64,000 nucleotides of DNA from an uncultured candidate division Zixibacteria bacterium. Its GTDB lineage: Bacteria > Zixibacteria > MSB-5A5 > UBA10806. The stretch spans positions 276,308-340,307 of the forward strand of contig CAWFQL010000017.1 of NCBI GenBank assembly GCA_963817915.1, written 5' to 3'. The notes under the pieces were generated by a model. That model saw nothing but the letters and a program-made list of their open reading frames with translations, made no database searches and was not told where the DNA came from. Each line of letters starts with the position of its first letter. The stretch's first letter is position 1. Shown one piece after another: positions 55,990-62,435 of this stretch. A program made the translations under genes and the position numbers.

Positions 55990-57623
55990 ATGAAAATGCG
56001 ACCAGTAGATTTCAAAGAACTTGCCGGTTCCACCCGGCTATTCATTGATTTTATTGATTGCAACAAGCAAGGATTAGGTCTTTTTGATTGCGATTTCAGA
56101 TCGATCGAATCTTATAAAAAAGCGGCTGTAGAGATTGATAAAAATTCCTACAGCCGTAATCTTTTGGTTTCCAGCATCGAAGCCGCGACATCTTCCATAC
56201 ATCTTTCGAATAAAACCAGAGACAATATAAAAAGGCTTTCTCAGCCCGATTCGCTTATCGTATTTGCCGGACAGCAGGTAGGCATGCTCCTGGGGCCGAT
56301 GTATACAATGTATAAGGCATTGACAGCCTATAAACTGGCGAAATGGCTGGAATCAGAATTGCATCGTCCAGTTATACCCTGCTTTTGGATGGCAACAGAC
56401 GATCATGATTTTGATGAAATAAAAAGCTCGAATTTCCTGAGTAGAGATGGCGATATTAATATATCGACCTATTCTCCATCCGTCCCCAAACCCGGTCTAC
56501 CGATTGCTGAACTTAAAATTGATGATGGAATCCAGGGCTTTTTGCAGTCTATCAAAGAGAATTTGATCGAGACCGAATTTACCGGCCAAATCGTCAAATT
56601 GATCGAGGAATTTTATACTCCGGATAGGACATTGGTCGACTCATTCACCCTGCTTTTTGATCGATTGCTCGGCGATTACGGAATTGTCCCGGTCGATCCC
56701 AATTATCCTGGCATGAAAAAACTAATGGCCCCGGTATTTCAATCCGAAATCGAGAATCATAAAGAAGCGTTCGATCTCTTTGAAAGTAAATCCAGCGAGC
56801 TGCTGAAAGCCGGTTACCATAGGCAGGTTCACAAAACAGGTTCGACTCTTAATCTTTTTTACTTCGATGGCATCCGCCGCAATATCGTTTTTGCGGATGG
56901 TAAATTTCAGCTGGACGGGCATTCGGAAAAATTCGACAAAAATCGATTGCTGGAAATGCTGGCCTCGTCACCAGAGAAATTTTCTCCCAATGTCCTGCTT
57001 CGCCCCATAGCGCAATGCTGCGCGTTTCCTACCATAGCGCAAATTGTTGGGCCATCTGAGGCGGCTTATTTTGCCCAGATTGAGCCCCTATATCGGTTCT
57101 ATAATATTCCGCTGCCGGTTGTCAGGCCGAGAATCTTCGCCTCGTTTGTAGAGCCCCATATTTCAAAAGTAATGAAAAAACTATCTATTGATTTTGCTTC
57201 GTTGCATAATGATCGAGAACATGAAATCAGCAGAGTGATCGAGGATAATTTTCTTACCGATCTGCAGGGTGATATCGAATCGTGAAAACTCGGATTGAGC
57301 AAGCATTCGATGATTTCGCCAGGCCTCTGGAAAATACTGATAAAGAAAGCTTTCAGGTAATTGATCGTCATAAAAAGAAAATAGATTACGAGTTGAATCA
57401 TATGACTGAAAGACTGCTCGCCACTCACAAAAAAAGACATGATATGGTCAGGGGACAAATAGGCCGAACAGCATCATTCCTTTTTCCTGAAGGTAATTTT
57501 CAGGAGAGAGTACTTTCACCGATTTATTTCGTAAACAAATTCGGGCCGAATATTTTCCAAAATATGGAAATTGAACTTGATTTAAATTCATTTGGCCACC
57601 AACTGATCGAGGTTGAGCCGTGA
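55990..57623 (+). CDS. bshC: Bacillithiol biosynthesis cysteine-adding enzyme BshC, with an apparent frameshift near 57280
   Basis: BshC N-terminal signature LIVFAGQQVGMLLGPMYTMYKALTAYKLA...PCFWMATDDHD. The C-terminal coiled-coil part continues in ORF 57282..57623. Confidence 0.75.
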
Positions 57624-59466: not shown

Positions 59467-59506
59467 AGAGACTTGCGTTCGCAAGTCTCTATGCTGTTTT
59501 CTTTTT
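59467..59506. terminator. Convergent-gene intrinsic terminator (11-bp perfect stem agagacttgcg/cgcaagtctct, then a T-rich tract on the + strand)
   Basis: The hairpin lies between the bshB stop and the stop of the minus-strand polyferredoxin gene. Confidence 0.6.
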
Positions 59507-61156
59507 TCTCAATAACAGCGATCGGCTTGGATCGCGGGTTTCGCCCGCCGATGTGATATAGACTCCCGGTTTCCCGGAGACCGGACAAACATTTTCGCAA
59601 ACGCCGCAGCCGGTGCATTTGTCAGGATCAATATGCGGCAATTTTATTTTAGTCATGTTGCCGTTTCTATCCTTGATCTCGGTCTCTTCCAACCAGATAG
59701 CTTTGGGAGATGTTGGACACCATTCCTCGCAGACTATACATGGCACTCCCATTGCCCAGGGCAGACATCGACCCTTATCATAAAATGCGGTCCCGATCTT
59801 CGTGGCCGGATTATTTTGATCGCCGATTTTAGTTTTGACATCGATATTTGCAATCGCCCCGGTCGGACAGGTATTGCCGCAAAGCACGCAATAATGCTCA
59901 CAATATCCTATTCTGGCAATCAATACAGGCGTGAAAATGCCTTCCCAGCCGGTTTCGAGTAGGGCGGGATGCAACGCATTATTAGGACATATCTTCATGC
60001 ATTGGCCGCAACGAATGCATCGCTTCAGAAAATCCTCTTCTATCAAGGAGCCCGGCGGCCTGATAAATGACTCATCGCTTACGAATTTTTCGCTTGATCT
60101 TAAAATCGGATATGTGATAACCCCCGCAACGCTGGCGATAACTGCTCGGCGAGTTGTCAGATCAGGAATAGCTTTATATTGATCAGTCTTAGCCTGAAAT
60201 CTAAATGAAATGACATTTTCGGGACAGATCGCCTGGCAATTCAGACACATATGACATTCAGCTCTGCGGTGAGGAACTAATCCCTGAGGATCATCGCCCC
60301 CCTGGCAATTCAAAAGACAAAGATTACATTCTGTGCATTTATCATTATCCTTATGAAGTCCAAATATCGAATAACGGCTTAGTAGCCCCAACGTCGCCCC
60401 CAACGGACACAGGCCTCTGCACCAGAATCGGGTGAAGACGCGATTGGCAGCTAAAATCGCCGCGAACATAATAGCCAACCAGAAAACTCCCTGGAAATGC
60501 GGCTGCTTAAAATAAATTATCGTGCCCGATCCAAGTGCATATATGCCTTTGCCGATCAGAGCCAGAATCTGAAAATGCGAGTTGCTCAACTGATTTGCCA
60601 GGCTGCTCAACCCGTAATTGAATGCCGGAATCAGCACCAATCCAATTGACCTGCCTGCAATTGTAATTGGGTCCAGCAATCCTGTTTGCAGCGAACCCAT
60701 TAAGGCGAGGGCAATCAGCCCTAAAAGCAGATAATATTTCCAAGCCTGATACTTATGATATTTATTGGATTCGATAAGTTTTTTGCCGCGACGGCTTTCT
60801 CTTTCCGAGGAAAAACTCGAAAACAATTGATTGATTGTGCCGAGCGGGCAAATCCAGCCGCAAAAAAATCTACCGAAGAAGATTGTCGCGATTATTATAA
60901 ATAGAGATAATAAAATCGAGCCATAAACTATCCGCGATGACAGACCGGTAGCAATCCCGGTAAGGGGATCAATATTAAAAAAGAGATTTAGCCACGGAGA
61001 TATGGTTGTCGCAATTTCGGGGTTCTTAAACGATGTGAATGAAAATTCGGTCAAATACAGAAGGACTATAAAAAATGATAGAAATATACCTTGGATAATT
61101 CTACGTAATGATCTGATGCGCTTGATAGTCTGAGTTGGATATTGCTCGCTTGGCAC
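59489..61156 (-). CDS. NapH/MauN/CcoG-like integral-membrane polyferredoxin (TM domain with two CxxxCP motifs plus ~6 [4Fe-4S] CxxCxxCxxxCP motifs)
   Basis: FCGWICPLG and CRGLCPLG sit in the TM region. Ferredoxin motifs: CTECNLCLLNC, CHMCLNCQAICP, CIRCGQCMKICP, CVLCGNTCPTG, CIVCEEWCP, CTGCGVCENVCP. Confidence 0.7.
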   Translation of the reverse strand: MPSEQYPTQTIKRIRSLRRIIQGIFLSFFIVLLYLTEFSFTSFKNPEIATTISPWLNLFFNIDPLTGIATGLSSRIVYGSILLSLFIIIATIFFGRFFCGWICPLGTINQLFSSFSSERESRRGKKLIESNKYHKYQAWKYYLLLGLIALALMGSLQTGLLDPITIAGRSIGLVLIPAFNYGLSSLANQLSNSHFQILALIGKGIYALGSGTIIYFKQPHFQGVFWLAIMFAAILAANRVFTRFWCRGLCPLGATLGLLSRYSIFGLHKDNDKCTECNLCLLNCQGGDDPQGLVPHRRAECHMCLNCQAICPENVISFRFQAKTDQYKAIPDLTTRRAVIASVAGVITYPILRSSEKFVSDESFIRPPGSLIEEDFLKRCIRCGQCMKICPNNALHPALLETGWEGIFTPVLIARIGYCEHYCVLCGNTCPTGAIANIDVKTKIGDQNNPATKIGTAFYDKGRCLPWAMGVPCIVCEEWCPTSPKAIWLEETEIKDRNGNMTKIKLPHIDPDKCTGCGVCENVCPVSGKPGVYITSAGETRDPSRSLLLRKKKTA

Positions 61157-62131
61157 TTATGAAAGTTCCTTTTCTGTCAGGCTATATCCGCTTAATTTCC
61201 CCAAGCCTCGTTTTTCACCCATCGATAAATATTCAAGGTCCTCCGGCTTTAATTTCAAAAATTTGCTCGAATATGAATCCGCGGCTACTTGATCTGTTGA
61301 TGCTATTACCGTATCGTGAATTTCGACATCCGATGGACTTCCACCAACCGGGCCATTCCGCATCATCACTCGAGTCGCGTCGACTACTATCAACGATGGG
61401 CGGAAGAAATCAGATAAATCGACAATCGATGTGTCGATCTGTTGATGAAGCTTATTGCGCGCGCCCCCCAGAACACCAAACCAGTTTTTCATCCCGATAG
61501 TCGCTTTCGACATGCCATGGTGTTTGACTACCGGCATATTGATTAGCTTATCGCATTCGACAAAGGGCCTCAATACCTGCCATTCACCGAGAATCTCGCC
61601 GCCCAGGTCAATGTTGACATACATCCTATCCTCAGGCAAAATCAACTCTACTCCCAAGTCTTTCATAGCCGCCGTGATTCCAGAACGTGGAAAGCATCTG
61701 CGTGGGTCATTGCAGGAGATATCGGTAACAATGACTTTCTTGGCCCCGGCGTTTAGGCATTCCAAAGCAACCGCCTTTACCAATTCAGGGTGGGTATTGG
61801 CTCCCTGTTCGGGCGTCCTGTCCCATCCGATATTCGGCTTGATCGTGACTATGTCGCCTTTTGATATGAATCTGCCAATGCCTCCAATCAGGCCTATCGC
61901 GGCCAGCGTCGCCTTCGCGTAATCCGATGATTTTACTGACACGACATCGGGAAATCCGGTATCGACCGGAATCCTTCGATCCCCCTTATAAATACCCTTA
62001 GCTGTTTCAGTTGGTGTATATTCATTTTGAGCCAGGAGATAACCGCCCCCGCCGAAAACTGTGGCCATCAGAGCCGCCTTGCCGGTGAGAGTCATAAAAT
62101 CGCGTCGCTTTAGTTTGTCATCGGACATCAA
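61157..62131 (-). CDS. Tat-signal (twin-arginine) exported DUF362-domain protein
   Basis: N-terminus MMSDDKLKRRDFMTLTGKAALMATVFGGGG (RRxFxK Tat motif). The rest matches the DUF362 family pattern. Its stop abuts the start of the downstream polyferredoxin gene (0-nt gap). Confidence 0.6.
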   Translation of the reverse strand: MMSDDKLKRRDFMTLTGKAALMATVFGGGGYLLAQNEYTPTETAKGIYKGDRRIPVDTGFPDVVSVKSSDYAKATLAAIGLIGGIGRFISKGDIVTIKPNIGWDRTPEQGANTHPELVKAVALECLNAGAKKVIVTDISCNDPRRCFPRSGITAAMKDLGVELILPEDRMYVNIDLGGEILGEWQVLRPFVECDKLINMPVVKHHGMSKATIGMKNWFGVLGGARNKLHQQIDTSIVDLSDFFRPSLIVVDATRVMMRNGPVGGSPSDVEIHDTVIASTDQVAADSYSSKFLKLKPEDLEYLSMGEKRGLGKLSGYSLTEKELS

Positions 62132-62373
62132 AGTCTCCTTTCAATGGTTAGCCCAATATCATCAAAATATCGCGGATAATCAAGGAAATGGTCGATTGAT
62201 TCCCTAAATGGTTGATTCAAAAATAGCTTGTTTTTGTAGAAATGCATCCTAAATTAATGCGGTGAAGATATGAATGAAAGTAAGTCGAATTAGTTGAAGG
62301 ATGGTTACAGGTAAGTTCTAAAAGAATATAGATTAAGCTGGATATTTAATTTCCGATATTTTATATTAGCCTT

Positions 62374-62399
62374 AACGGGAATGGTCCCGTTTTTGTTTT
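62374..62399 (+). terminator. Terminator-like hairpin (aacggga-atgg-tcccgtt + T5) in the divergent intergenic region ~35 nt upstream of valS
   Basis: Perfect 7-bp stem plus ttttt. Confidence 0.4.
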
Positions 62400-62435
62400 A
62401 GAATTATTTGAAGAGGTTTAGATAGTTTAGAAGCC

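Follow-up and report, generated by a model that had tools for sequence, protein, structure and literature searches.

A DUF362 protein with a Tat-type signal and a predicted LarA-like fold is encoded together with a NapH-NapG fusion polyferredoxin: a candidate redox module of Zixibacteria and other phyla

The 64,000-nucleotide stretch of Zixibacteria DNA analyzed here (the window) contains a pair of genes, coding for a member of the DUF362 family and for a membrane polyferredoxin (PFD), through which nickel-pincer chemistry may be tied to electron transport, a combination not described so far. We give about an even chance to the reading in which the two products constitute one redox module, with a periplasmic DUF362 enzyme, probably bearing the nickel-pincer nucleotide (NPN), wired to a transmembrane chain of Fe-S clusters.

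The DUF362 gene (61157..62128, minus strand; identified as an ORF matching PF04015) encodes 323 aa plus stop, a probable catalytic subunit with predicted Tat export, and is followed by the PFD gene (59489..61156, minus strand; 555 aa plus stop), which encodes a polytopic protein. Use of the first TTG would place the DUF362 gene at 61157..62131; the ATG at 62128 is the likelier start, with GGAG 6 nt upstream, a Shine-Dalgarno-like GAAAGGAG read from the sequence at 62135..62141 (minus strand), and a 323-aa product that is a 100% match to the database protein P0001. The sequence-only reading had reported a two-gene module at 59489-62131 as the only minus-strand unit; the ORF coordinates in the window bear this out, and the uniqueness holds if ORFs with a minimum length of 150 aa are considered, as the two further minus-strand ORFs are both nested in larger plus-strand ORFs. 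The pair is flanked by bshC, bshA, bshB1 and valS, and a 10-bp GC-containing hairpin (59467..59490), terminator-like on the plus strand, lies where the bshB1 and PFD genes converge and overlaps the PFD stop codon. The TAA of the DUF362 gene directly abuts the GTG of the PFD gene (TAAGTG, 61154..61159, minus strand, read from the sequence; no gap between the codons), and relatives show either the same abutting arrangement or a 1-nt overlap, so the translational coupling proposed earlier is plausible and conserved.

The association of the two genes extends well beyond this genome. PFD was found on the same strand in 65 of 80 GTDB species loci anchored on DUF362, as the next gene downstream in 25 of the 65 (with 5-443 nt separating the aligned regions); conversely, a DUF362-family gene was present on the same strand in 35 of 38 well-flanked metagenome loci anchored on PFD, and immediately upstream in all five PFD look-ups, which covered four phyla. 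At least seven phyla share the conserved pair, including Zixibacteria, Ignavibacteria, Gemmatimonadota, Acidobacteriota, Myxococcota, Verrucomicrobiota and KSB1. The idea that DUF362 and PFD are chance neighbours with unrelated functions is hardly credible: it is contradicted by this conserved same-strand adjacency, seen in both anchoring directions, and by the abutting stop and start codons. The searched literature contains no paper linking DUF362 to this polyferredoxin or to NPN, and the suggestion of an undescribed, periplasm-facing module made of a Tat-type DUF362 protein and a NapH-like partner is supported, with electron transfer as its predicted activity. There are also 11 loci in which DUF362 orthologues occur without PFD, beside an unannotated protein of ~790 aa and mostly a radical-SAM gene. 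A cultured carrier of the module with a complete genome is Sorangium sp. So ce1335.

The DUF362 family has no assigned function and is very large (at E<=1e-3 its profile matches 10,115 clusters at 50% identity), and the protein from the window is a member (PF04015: 179.6 bits with E=1e-52, against a gathering cut-off of 24; the match spans positions 1-198 of the 200 in the profile). Its N-terminus (aa 1-33; 62030..62128, minus strand) resembles a Tat-type signal or signal anchor: K-R-R-D-F-M-T (aa 7-13) is followed by a Gly/Ala-rich hydrophobic stretch up to ~aa 32, and AF2 predicts a helix at 8-33 with low pLDDT. The motif quoted in the sequence-only reading, KRRDFMTLTGKAALMA, corresponds to aa 7-22. 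The twin arginines R8 and R9 (codons at 62102..62107, minus strand) are invariant in 33/33 orthologues, and the pattern RRx## (# being F, L, I, V, M, A, T or G) is present in 115 of 129 full-length representatives of the 50% clusters. The twin-arginine signal claimed earlier stands as far as motif, hydrophobic stretch and RR conservation are concerned; of the Tat profiles, the curated HMM TIGR01409 gave 13.8 bits (E=0.057), below its cut-off of 16.7, and Pfam TAT_signal (PF10518) did not match (a DUF362 paralogue from a related locus reaches 24.7 bits). Since the profile score is sub-threshold, the Tat call rests on the motif, the hydrophobic stretch and their conservation, according to which the protein is probably exported to the periplasm in folded form.

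The globular domain (about aa 50-323; 61160..61981, minus strand) was modeled by AF2 with a pLDDT of 89, and a Foldseek search with the model returned exclusively the LarA family among matches at E<=1e-3 (19/19), by which the predicted structure is shown to have the fold of the LarA (NPN) enzymes. The Pfam DUF362 HMM scores 26.1 bits on a bona fide LarA, above its gathering score of 24, and the two families share the Pfam clan CL0471 (PMC11770544). The DUF362 protein itself matches only PF04015, with no match to Lar_N (PF09861) or LarA_C (PF21113) even at E<=10; true LarA proteins match both of these. Residues conserved to at least 95% are K97, N99, D136, K202, H204, K214, R224, H228 and D250, and within the H204-x9-K214-x13-H228 block (61445..61519, minus strand; delimited by conservation, hhalign and Pfam HMM coordinates) each of the three is at least 97% conserved among 130 DUF362 sequences (H204 and K214 at least 98%). 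Four hhalign runs placed H204 on LarA His174 and K214 on Lys184, and the Pfam HMM coordinates agree; these profile-profile alignments have negligible statistical support (probability <6%), and what backs the equivalence of the residues is consistency rather than significance. With this reservation, we propose H204 as the counterpart of the catalytic His174 and K214 as that of the NPN-tethering Lys184, and, less certainly, H228 as that of the Ni ligand His200 (aligned manually, not by hhalign; 97% conserved in the orthogroup, not in paralogues). H204 and K214 are present in every DUF362 paralogue examined, H228 is not, and some paralogues lack both H228 and R224. The position of LarA His108 is taken by Cys139/Asn140, i.e. 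the second catalytic His is absent; single-His LarA homologues exist (PMC12611868). From the fold and the His/Lys pair we infer that DUF362 probably binds NPN.

Alternatively, DUF362 could be a non-enzymatic accessory, assembly or stabilizing subunit of PFD, e.g. a Tat "proofreading" or docking partner. The tight coupling of the genes would fit such a role, as would the paralogues without H228 and R224, which could be non-catalytic, and the substrate or activity of DUF362 is not known. We nonetheless find this explanation improbable, given that charged and polar residues conserved to at least 95% on an enzyme fold are typical of an active site and that the orthologues at the 11 loci mentioned above do without PFD.

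The second gene product of the proposed redox module, PFD, matches NapH-like NCBIfam models over aa 16-318 and NapG-like models over aa 335-527, both below the equivalog cut-offs (NapH: 65 bits vs 234; NapG: 109 vs 269), and by its sequence fuses a NapH-like to a NapG-like part, with a twin-arginine motif inside the chain. The NapH-like membrane domain (aa 1-262; 60371..61156, minus strand) was delimited by hydropathy, Cys motifs and AF2 helices (9-41, 79-94, 135-152, 163-191, 222-240), and the two CxxxCP motifs that had been noticed in it were located at C99/C103 (60845-60862) and C246/C250 (60404-60421, both minus strand), with Cys 100% conserved. Two CxxCxxCxxxC motifs follow (aa 274-312; 60221..60337, minus strand; assigned from Cys motifs and conservation), which by the topology of NapH and of the PFD studied by Tooke et al. 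2017 would form a cytoplasmic 2x[4Fe-4S] domain. Next comes a segment (60086..60166, minus strand) comprising R336 and R337 (60146-60151), a fifth transmembrane segment (TMD5, aa 338-352) and the basic R353. R336 is found in 175/175 homologues (the neighbouring column has R in 147/175, or K/R at 337), G345, P350 and R353 are conserved to 100%, 97% and 98% in the same 175 sequences, and TMD5 is only weakly hydrophobic, below the hydropathy threshold of 1.3 used to flag segments. The C-terminal NapG-like domain (59567..60061, minus strand) has four four-Cys motifs (C380-390, C419-430, C464-480, C514-524) and is predicted to be periplasmic, given the Tat motif within the protein and the findings of Tooke et al. 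2017. Altogether PFD has six ferredoxin-type four-Cys motifs and the two CxxxCP motifs; these 28 Cys (7 x 4) are all at least 99% conserved in the 175 homologues, and judging from them the protein can hold seven clusters. The earlier description as NapH-like with about six [4Fe-4S] motifs therefore captured the membrane part and the six ferredoxin-type motifs correctly; the total of six clusters is superseded by a capacity of seven in a NapH-NapG fusion. AF2 modeled PFD poorly (overall pLDDT 58, about 27-46 over the NapG-like part).

The architecture of PFD is already described, as a dual Sec/Tat substrate of unknown function (PMC5449189). The PFD of the delta proteobacterium MLMS-1 (Q1NSB0) is inserted by Sec and Tat (Tooke et al., eLife 2017, PMC5449189); that study deals with membrane insertion only, assigns no function to PFD and contains 0 occurrences of DUF362 (PMC5449189). 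MLMS-1 PFD is 35% identical to the protein from the window over 328 aa (E=1e-50), its residues 43-361 being colinear with aa 56-356 and the RR/TMD5 segments aligned. Both are NapH-NapG fusions with five TMDs and seven four-Cys sites (three on the cytoplasmic side, four outside), and both have RR directly ahead of TMD5, which is weakly hydrophobic and is followed by a basic residue. We therefore infer Sec/Tat insertion and the topology of PFD in the window from this tested homologue.

Two known systems were considered for PFD and rejected: the NapGH quinol dehydrogenase of the nap operon (PFD is a fused polypeptide, scores far below the equivalog and has no napA/napB/napC/napD context) and CcoG/FixG (the C-terminal half is NapG-like and there are no adjacent cco genes). 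No nap, nos or mau genes were found around the locus in the window, Pfam annotation called no nap gene in the surroundings of related loci, and no CcoG model is among the best 25 of 48 NCBIfam matches to PFD. The view that the pair is no NapGH, NosGH or CcoG system with its usual partner agrees with these results. CcoG/FixG carry a NapH-type membrane domain, and one may ask whether electrons from PFD reduce periplasmic Cu, Fe or Ni in a CcoG-like manner, with DUF362, which has conserved His, Asp and Lys, as the metal-binding partner. We regard this as highly improbable: besides the lack of cco genes nearby, the C-terminal domain of PFD is a NapG-like one with four clusters and not the periplasmic domain of CcoG, and the fold of DUF362 indicates nucleotide-cofactor enzymes.

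A link between the DUF362-PFD module and NPN comes from the genomic context in relatives. In 27 acidobacterial loci larE-larC-larB lie directly upstream of PFD-DUF6599-DUF362b-DUF362a, with NCBIfam equivalog scores all above cut-off (LarE: 297; LarC1: 199.7; LarC2: 132.3; LarB: 292.8 bits). These loci form one clade with PFD identity of 78-100%, so the lar linkage counts as roughly one evolutionary event. Canonical LarA was found in 1 of 167 loci. Of the 27 lar-linked loci, 8 have an aldo-keto reductase (AKR) gene adjacent to the module and 19 show none, while DUF362 genes are present in every locus whose contig reaches far enough; no AKR gene was found in the window. The neighbouring AKR has a Tat-type signal, has the NPMN enzyme NphT as its closest relative and retains the H144/K200 motif of NphT, which suggests that exported pincer enzymes exist in this gene context. 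Both the LarA-like fold of DUF362 and the larE/larC/larB operon in relatives escaped the first reading of the sequence. Taken together, they suggest which cofactor, NPN, would make Tat export of DUF362 necessary.

The same observations leave room for a module of identical layout with another cofactor, a simple metal site or none, in which DUF362 is a periplasmic catalytic subunit, PFD serves it as the wire just as NapGH/NosGH serve terminal reductases, and the His/Lys pair is an inherited feature of the fold put to a new role; we rate this as a serious possibility, though less likely than not. Co-occurrence and architecture fit it equally well. Linkage to lar genes occurs in a single clade, where the NphT-like AKR could be the true NPN client, and no larB, larC or larE was found within the 64-kb window or, at distances of up to 10 kb, called in two further Zixibacteria; the absence of H228 from paralogues points the same way. 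Against it, tethering of NPN is the sole known role of the equivalent LarA Lys (PMC13524815), and His and Lys are both retained in all paralogues examined. Furthermore, the 19 lar-linked loci without a visible AKR have DUF362 genes wherever the contig suffices, and the conserved Cys of DUF362 (C124 79%, C139 55%) are too few for an Fe-S site.

Under the NPN reading of the module, the following mechanism can be envisaged. PFD would act as a transmembrane electron wire, with TM1-4 holding a Cys4 site formed by the two CxxxCP motifs and the two [4Fe-4S] motifs coming next on the cytoplasmic side. The internal RR and the weakly hydrophobic fifth helix would pass the NapG-like domain with its four [4Fe-4S] to Tat, so that this domain would fold with its clusters before reaching the periplasm. 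DUF362 would be the catalytic partner, its retained His and Lys putatively matching the general base and the covalent NPN tether of LarA. LarB, LarE and LarC may supply the NPN with which it is loaded while still in the cytoplasm, which would explain the twin-arginine signal and the folded export. In the periplasm DUF362 would then dock on the NapG-like domain, as strict co-occurrence and translational coupling suggest, and the seven clusters would connect oxidation or reduction of a substrate at the pincer cofactor with the quinone pool or a cytoplasmic redox partner. In a variant of this scheme the Fe-S chain would merely hold the cofactor reduced in the oxidizing periplasm. By analogy with the chemistry of LarA and NphT, the substrate would most likely be a hydroxy acid, a sugar or a carbonyl compound. 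The fullest version of this proposal, namely that the DUF362 orthogroup is a new class of nickel-pincer enzymes loaded with NPN in the cytoplasm, exported folded by Tat and exchanging electrons with the seven-cluster PFD, seems to us possible but doubtful.

If the proposal is true, it connects three orphans: DUF362, PFD, and NPN biosynthesis without LarA. Hundreds of prokaryotes make the nickel-pincer cofactor yet lack LarA, and further NPN enzymes await discovery (PMC13524815); part of this puzzle of "NPN biosynthesis genes without LarA" would be accounted for, and PFD, an experimentally studied dual Sec/Tat membrane protein, would gain a function. If DUF362 binds NPN and communicates with Fe-S clusters, pincer chemistry would extend from cytoplasmic isomerization and hydride shuttling to periplasmic redox catalysis linked to the respiratory chain. 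The module is carried by phyla that are widespread in soil and sediment (Acidobacteriota, Zixibacteria, Gemmatimonadota, Myxococcota, Ignavibacteria).

To our knowledge, all known NPN enzymes shuttle hydride only within the active site or between substrates, and we know of no precedent for electron transfer between the NPN cofactor and an Fe-S cluster. Members of the LarA superfamily (5HUQ, 7S91, 9EIA, 9Q3J) have about 420 aa, compared with about 270 aa in mature DUF362; unlike them, DUF362 has predicted Tat export and a polyferredoxin partner, and this pairing implies net redox chemistry rather than the internal return of hydride as in LarA. The LarA-family papers found by our literature search mention neither a Tat signal nor an Fe-S partner. 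NphT, an NPMN-dependent aldo-keto reductase (PDB 9YEB), is a precedent for a non-LarA fold tethering a pincer cofactor by a His/Lys pair (PMC13524815), although its TIM-barrel is unrelated to the DUF362 fold. Enzymes of this type are discoverable through co-occurrence with larB, larC and larE (Nat Chem 2026, PMC13524815); the words "twin-arginine", "periplasm" and "ferredoxin" have 0 occurrences in that paper (PMC13524815).

As for PFD, NapGH, NosGH and MauMN consist of the same building blocks, i.e. a NapH-type membrane protein (CxxxCP and cytoplasmic clusters) and a NapG-type periplasmic ferredoxin with four clusters, and PFD is likely to act as in NapGH, by analogy providing the electron path that joins an enzyme in the periplasm to the membrane or the cytoplasm. 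The differences are that NapGH is made of two proteins whereas both are fused in one polypeptide here, and that the partner is DUF362 instead of a molybdo- or copper enzyme. MsrPQ (YedYZ), the split counterpart of the second dual-targeted family according to Tooke et al. (PMC5449189), is a functional analogy only, as its sequences are unrelated and it has molybdopterin and haem b in place of the putative NPN and the Fe-S clusters; in it, too, a Tat-exported, cofactor-bearing periplasmic enzyme receives its electrons from a dedicated membrane partner.

The two genes of the module lie on the minus strand. The upstream ORF spans 61157..62131 if read from its first TTG; the likelier start, with GGAG 6 nt 5' of it in the sequence, is the ATG at 62128, giving the 323-aa DUF362 protein, identical to a database protein of the same length. 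The downstream ORF (59489..61156, minus strand) encodes the 555-aa polytopic polyferredoxin (PFD) from a GTG start, which abuts the TAA stop of the DUF362 gene (TAAGTG), a junction that makes translational coupling of the two plausible. The sequence-only reading had described such a two-gene unit as the sole one on the minus strand, and this is borne out: both ORFs are present, and in the 64-kb window every other ORF of 150 aa or more, nested ones excluded, is on the plus strand. The strand bias is thus extreme across 1-59444, where the cumulative GC skew also climbs steadily; both are consistent with a single replichore.

The unit is convergent with bshC (two ORFs), bshA and bshB1, with a hairpin (59467-59490) between the ends of bshB1 and the PFD gene, and divergent from valS (start 62436). 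bshC is found in two overlapping plus-strand ORFs, 55990-57285 (positions 3-409 of the BshC HMM) and 57282-57623 (HMM 421-528), which could reflect a frameshift, a sequencing error or a truly split gene. As bshA and bshB1 are intact 3' of it, this organism apparently produces bacillithiol. The divergent intergenic region between DUF362 and valS (62132-62435, ~300 bp) contains a plus-strand hairpin (62374-62391) followed by a T-run, ~45 nt 5' of the valS start, which looks like a leader or attenuator; this region matched no Rfam family. Rfam and tRNA scans of the whole window gave no matches, and a promoter scan of the window did not rise above the shuffled expectation. Among the loci of relatives (referred to by L numbers), the order valS-DUF362-PFD recurs in L085 and L086, and in L005, L006 and L040 an unannotated ~886-aa ORF occupies the divergent position held elsewhere by valS.

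PFD exhibits NapH-like (aa 16-318) and NapG-like (aa 335-527) regions according to NCBIfam, both far under the equivalog cut-offs. Its 28 Cys residues form, from the N-terminus on, C99/C103 and C246/C250 (the CxxxCP motifs of the membrane domain), two CxxCxxCxxxC motifs (aa 274-311) and, past a TT-R336-R337-AVIASVAGVITYPIL-R353 segment, four further four-Cys motifs. Among 175 homologues all 28 Cys are kept at >=99%, R336 in 100% with R or K as its neighbour, and G345, P350 and R353 in about 97-100%. This architecture was found bioinformatically and then tested on Q1NSB0 from MLMS-1 by Tooke et al. (eLife 2017, PMC5449189), who term it a NapH-NapG fusion: Q1NSB0 has five TMDs, four clusters outside and three towards the cytoplasm, and an RR motif ahead of the weakly hydrophobic TMD5; the protein is inserted by Sec plus Tat. 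The window PFD is colinear with it (35% identity, E=1e-50), and the RR/TMD5 segments line up (PDLTTRRAVIASVAGVITYPILRSSE in the window vs PDLGRRRLLGAAAAGLVVGPLLRVSN in MLMS-1, the latter TMD sequence taken from the supplementary file of Tooke et al.). Four PFD clusters very probably lie in the periplasm. The earlier label of a "NapH-like polyferredoxin" is right but incomplete, as the NapG-like half and the internal RR motif place the protein in the PFD class, whose biogenesis has been described (Tooke et al. 2017). Neither the scores nor the gene context agree with a true NapGH, NosGH or CcoG system, and this reading was rejected. The AF2 model of PFD (pLDDT 58) supports helix positions only and is too poor for a fold search.

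The DUF362 product matches Pfam DUF362 with E=1e-52 and carries K-R-R-D-F-M-T near its N-terminus, ahead of a hydrophobic stretch rich in Gly/Ala. Among 33 orthologues R8 and R9 do not vary, unlike the other N-terminal positions, and an RRx## motif (# being F, L, I, V, M, A, T or G) occurs within the first 70 residues of 115 of the 129 full-length representatives (50% clustering). A curated Tat HMM scored 13.8 bits, under its cut-off of 16.7. The twin-arginine signal claimed previously is thus a well supported prediction as regards motif, hydrophobic stretch and conservation, but it is not confirmed by the profile.

The co-occurrence of a Tat-signal DUF362 protein with a NapH-like gene, for which the sequence-only reading had asked, was found in two samples. 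In the first, one genome per GTDB species was scanned for DUF362, with at least 596 carriers, of which 80 loci were kept; PFD is present in 65/80, on the same strand every time, as the next gene downstream in 25 (5-443 nt between aligned regions) and upstream in 40. The 15 loci without PFD comprise 3 incomplete ones, 11 with another context, and L035. The 11 encode an unannotated ~790-aa protein (the one tested matches no Pfam family), mostly with a radical-SAM gene and in several cases with an extra DUF362 paralogue; clustering reveals the ~790-aa protein in L035 as well. In Terriglobia this alternative context (L002:10601-14799, L007, L015, L023, L027, L043, L058, L064, L066, L070) has the DUF362 orthologue divergent from the ~790-aa protein, with a radical-SAM gene and a signal-less DUF362 paralogue adjoining and PFD absent within 6 kb. 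The second sample consisted of 80 metagenome loci anchored on PFD. DUF362 is present at orthologue level in 44 of them; of the 38 loci whose flanks suffice, 29 contain this orthologue and 6 others a paralogue (35/38), always on the same strand. In all five individual look-ups (including Gemmatimonadota, Acidobacteriota and KSB1) DUF362 is directly 5' of PFD, and one of these contigs has the Zixibacteria-type valS synteny. Taxa named in the records of the pair include Zixibacteria, Ignavibacteria, Gemmatimonadota, Acidobacteriota, Verrucomicrobiia, KSB1 and Myxococcota, the last with a cultured carrier, Sorangium sp. So ce1335.

After DUF362 and PFD, the most constant gene of the module is DUF6599, located 3' of PFD in many loci and matched in 45/80 GTDB and 61/80 metagenome loci. 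Its product is a predicted lipoprotein (lipobox Cys near residue 20) that keeps a W/Y-x-Y-I-D-G-G-A-E motif and occurs in a long (~300 aa) and a short (~165 aa) form; examples are L009:8454-9353, L086:11632-12543, L087:11695-12603 and L030:4387-4875, with ~100 further loci. DUF6599 does not appear in the literature searched.

The predicted structure of the DUF362 protein shows the fold of LarA, the lactate racemase with a nickel-pincer nucleotide (NPN): with the AF2 model (pLDDT 89, >90 from about residue 51) as a query, 19/19 Foldseek matches at E<=1e-3 were LarA-family structures. DUF362 and the LarA N-terminal domain share one Pfam clan (PMC11770544), and authentic LarA proteins match the Pfam DUF362 HMM above its gathering score, whereas our own DUF362 HMM did not match LarA. 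PDB sequence and profile searches with the protein or its alignment reported nothing relevant. Among 130 DUF362 sequences (<=50% mutual identity), K97, N99, D136, K202, H204, K214, R224, H228 and D250 are >=95% conserved. The DUF362 segment VVK-H-H204-GMSKATIGM-K214 aligns with LarA IES-H174-FFAGFSGGR-K184, where His174 is a catalytic acid/base and Lys184 the covalent cofactor tether (PMC13524815). This placement was obtained by hand, in four hhalign runs and from shared Pfam-HMM coordinates, using a LarA reference whose sequence equals that of 5HUQ chain A. It was reproducible but is no statistical proof: when DUF362 profiles (Neff 2.6-4.7) were compared with LarA in hhalign, as sequences or as alignments, the probabilities stayed <6%. 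A LarA-seeded homologue search added little profile diversity, because it returned close relatives (75-99% identical to LarA, except a few at 53% and one unaligned). H228, a candidate for the LarA Ni-ligand His200, is orthogroup-specific and is placed elsewhere by hhalign, and the position of LarA His108 is Cys139/Asn140 in DUF362. An Fe-S site in DUF362 was rejected, as its conserved Cys do not suffice for one. Nor was a connection with the Ni-S cofactor in the fibres of cable bacteria retained, since the paper on it cites no more than a nickel-pincer model compound.

Genes for NPN synthesis adjoin the module in 27 loci (11 GTDB and 16 metagenome), in the order larE-larC-larB-PFD-DUF6599-(DUF362b)-DUF362a on one strand. 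The products of L046 exceed the curated equivalog cut-offs (LarE 297 bits, LarC1 199.7, LarC2 132.3, LarB 292.8), and a canonical LarA is found in 1/167 loci. The records that carry a name are from Acidobacteriaceae, Terracidiphilus and other Acidobacteriota/Terriglobia MAGs; as all 27 loci belong to one clade (PFD identity 78-100%, GC 0.55-0.64), the linkage is one conserved arrangement rather than many independent ones. An orphan 90-aa ORF (L001:13081-13354, Gemmatimonadota, 3.4 kb 3' of PFD) resembles LarC in the C-terminal LarC2 part only (tblastn E=0.008; the precomputed annotation gives Pfam Ni_insertion), a likeness too weak to be taken as independent lar linkage. In three lar-linked acidobacterial loci (L025:7030-8904, L029, L061) a GH127 (beta-L-arabinofuranosidase-like) gene is directly 3' of DUF362a, a faint hint at sugar-derived substrates. 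The window itself gave no match to larB, larC, larE or DUF6599 and, for aldo-keto reductases, one at chance level (E=0.009) inside the PFD gene. The main rival explanation, that the module is real and DUF362 uses another cofactor or none, is in our opinion possible, if short of probable: it agrees with the confinement of the lar linkage to this single acidobacterial clade and with the lack of lar genes in the window and among the genes called within 10 kb in two other Zixibacteria, but H204 and K214 are kept in each DUF362 paralogue examined, cytoplasmic ones included.

An aldo-keto reductase (AKR) with a Tat signal is encoded convergently in 8/27 lar-linked loci. The best PDB match of the L029 representative is the recently discovered NPMN-dependent AKR NphT (9YEB, E=3.8e-34), of which H144, K200, D47 and H106 are kept, H144/K200 being the NphT cofactor motif. 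Tat-signal AKRs beside PFD/DUF362 are found in L029:9029-10105(-), L046:7774-8886(-), L053, L119, L161, L166 and others. NAD(P)H could not serve an AKR in the periplasm, hence these neighbours may be exported pincer enzymes, and their predicted signals suggest independently that pincer enzymes are exported in the setting of this module; the NphT paper (PMC13524815) does not mention exported pincer enzymes. The AKR, rather than DUF362, could then be the pincer client at the lar-linked loci it adjoins; however, it is absent from most lar-linked loci whose downstream sequence is visible for 5-6 kb, and on contigs of sufficient reach larECB constantly share their operon with the PFD, DUF6599 and DUF362 genes. 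Verrucomicrobiia and some acidobacterial loci (L076:7966-9156(+), L068:4865-6106(+), L060:9384-10616(+)) have a second AKR type 3' of DUF6599, with a Tat signal and a 2x[4Fe-4S] domain fused at its C-terminus; it is nearer to AKR14A1 than to NphT. L086, with Zixibacteria-type synteny, contains an ornithine cyclodeaminase/mu-crystallin family gene (552-1532) 8 kb from the module past valS; an ornithine cyclodeaminase dependent on NPAD (pincer dinucleotide) was recently reported, as cited in PMC13524815, and the proximity is probably a coincidence.

The mechanism that we propose, about as likely as not, is that of a periplasmic NPN enzyme served by PFD; that DUF362 represents a new class of nickel-pincer enzyme linked to the respiratory chain is a more speculative reading, less likely than not. 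The NPN would be loaded in the cytoplasm, which would be why DUF362 needs Tat; the protein would then dock on the periplasmic NapG-like domain of PFD, and the seven clusters would conduct electrons from or to the substrate, with the quinone pool or a cytoplasmic partner at the other end. In a milder variant, the PFD chain would merely hold the cofactor in its active redox state. The least secure step is the coupling of the pincer cofactor to Fe-S carriers, since we know of no precedent for a hydride-accepting pincer cofactor coupled to one-electron carriers of this kind.

The literature searched for DUF362, PF04015 or nickel-pincer together with twin-arginine or periplasm yielded nothing pertinent, mentioned DUF362 solely as an outgroup for the LarA phylogeny, and mentioned neither a Tat signal nor an Fe-S partner for the LarA enzymes or NphT, which are the known pincer enzymes; Tooke et al. 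(PMC5449189) nowhere mention DUF362. Like the MLMS-1 protein, the window PFD joins NapH-like and NapG-like halves, with seven four-Cys sites and an RR motif between the halves; NapGH and NosGH are its split relatives and have different partners. Compared with these systems, we rate DUF362 as a LarA-clan protein with a predicted new cellular location and a new kind of partner.
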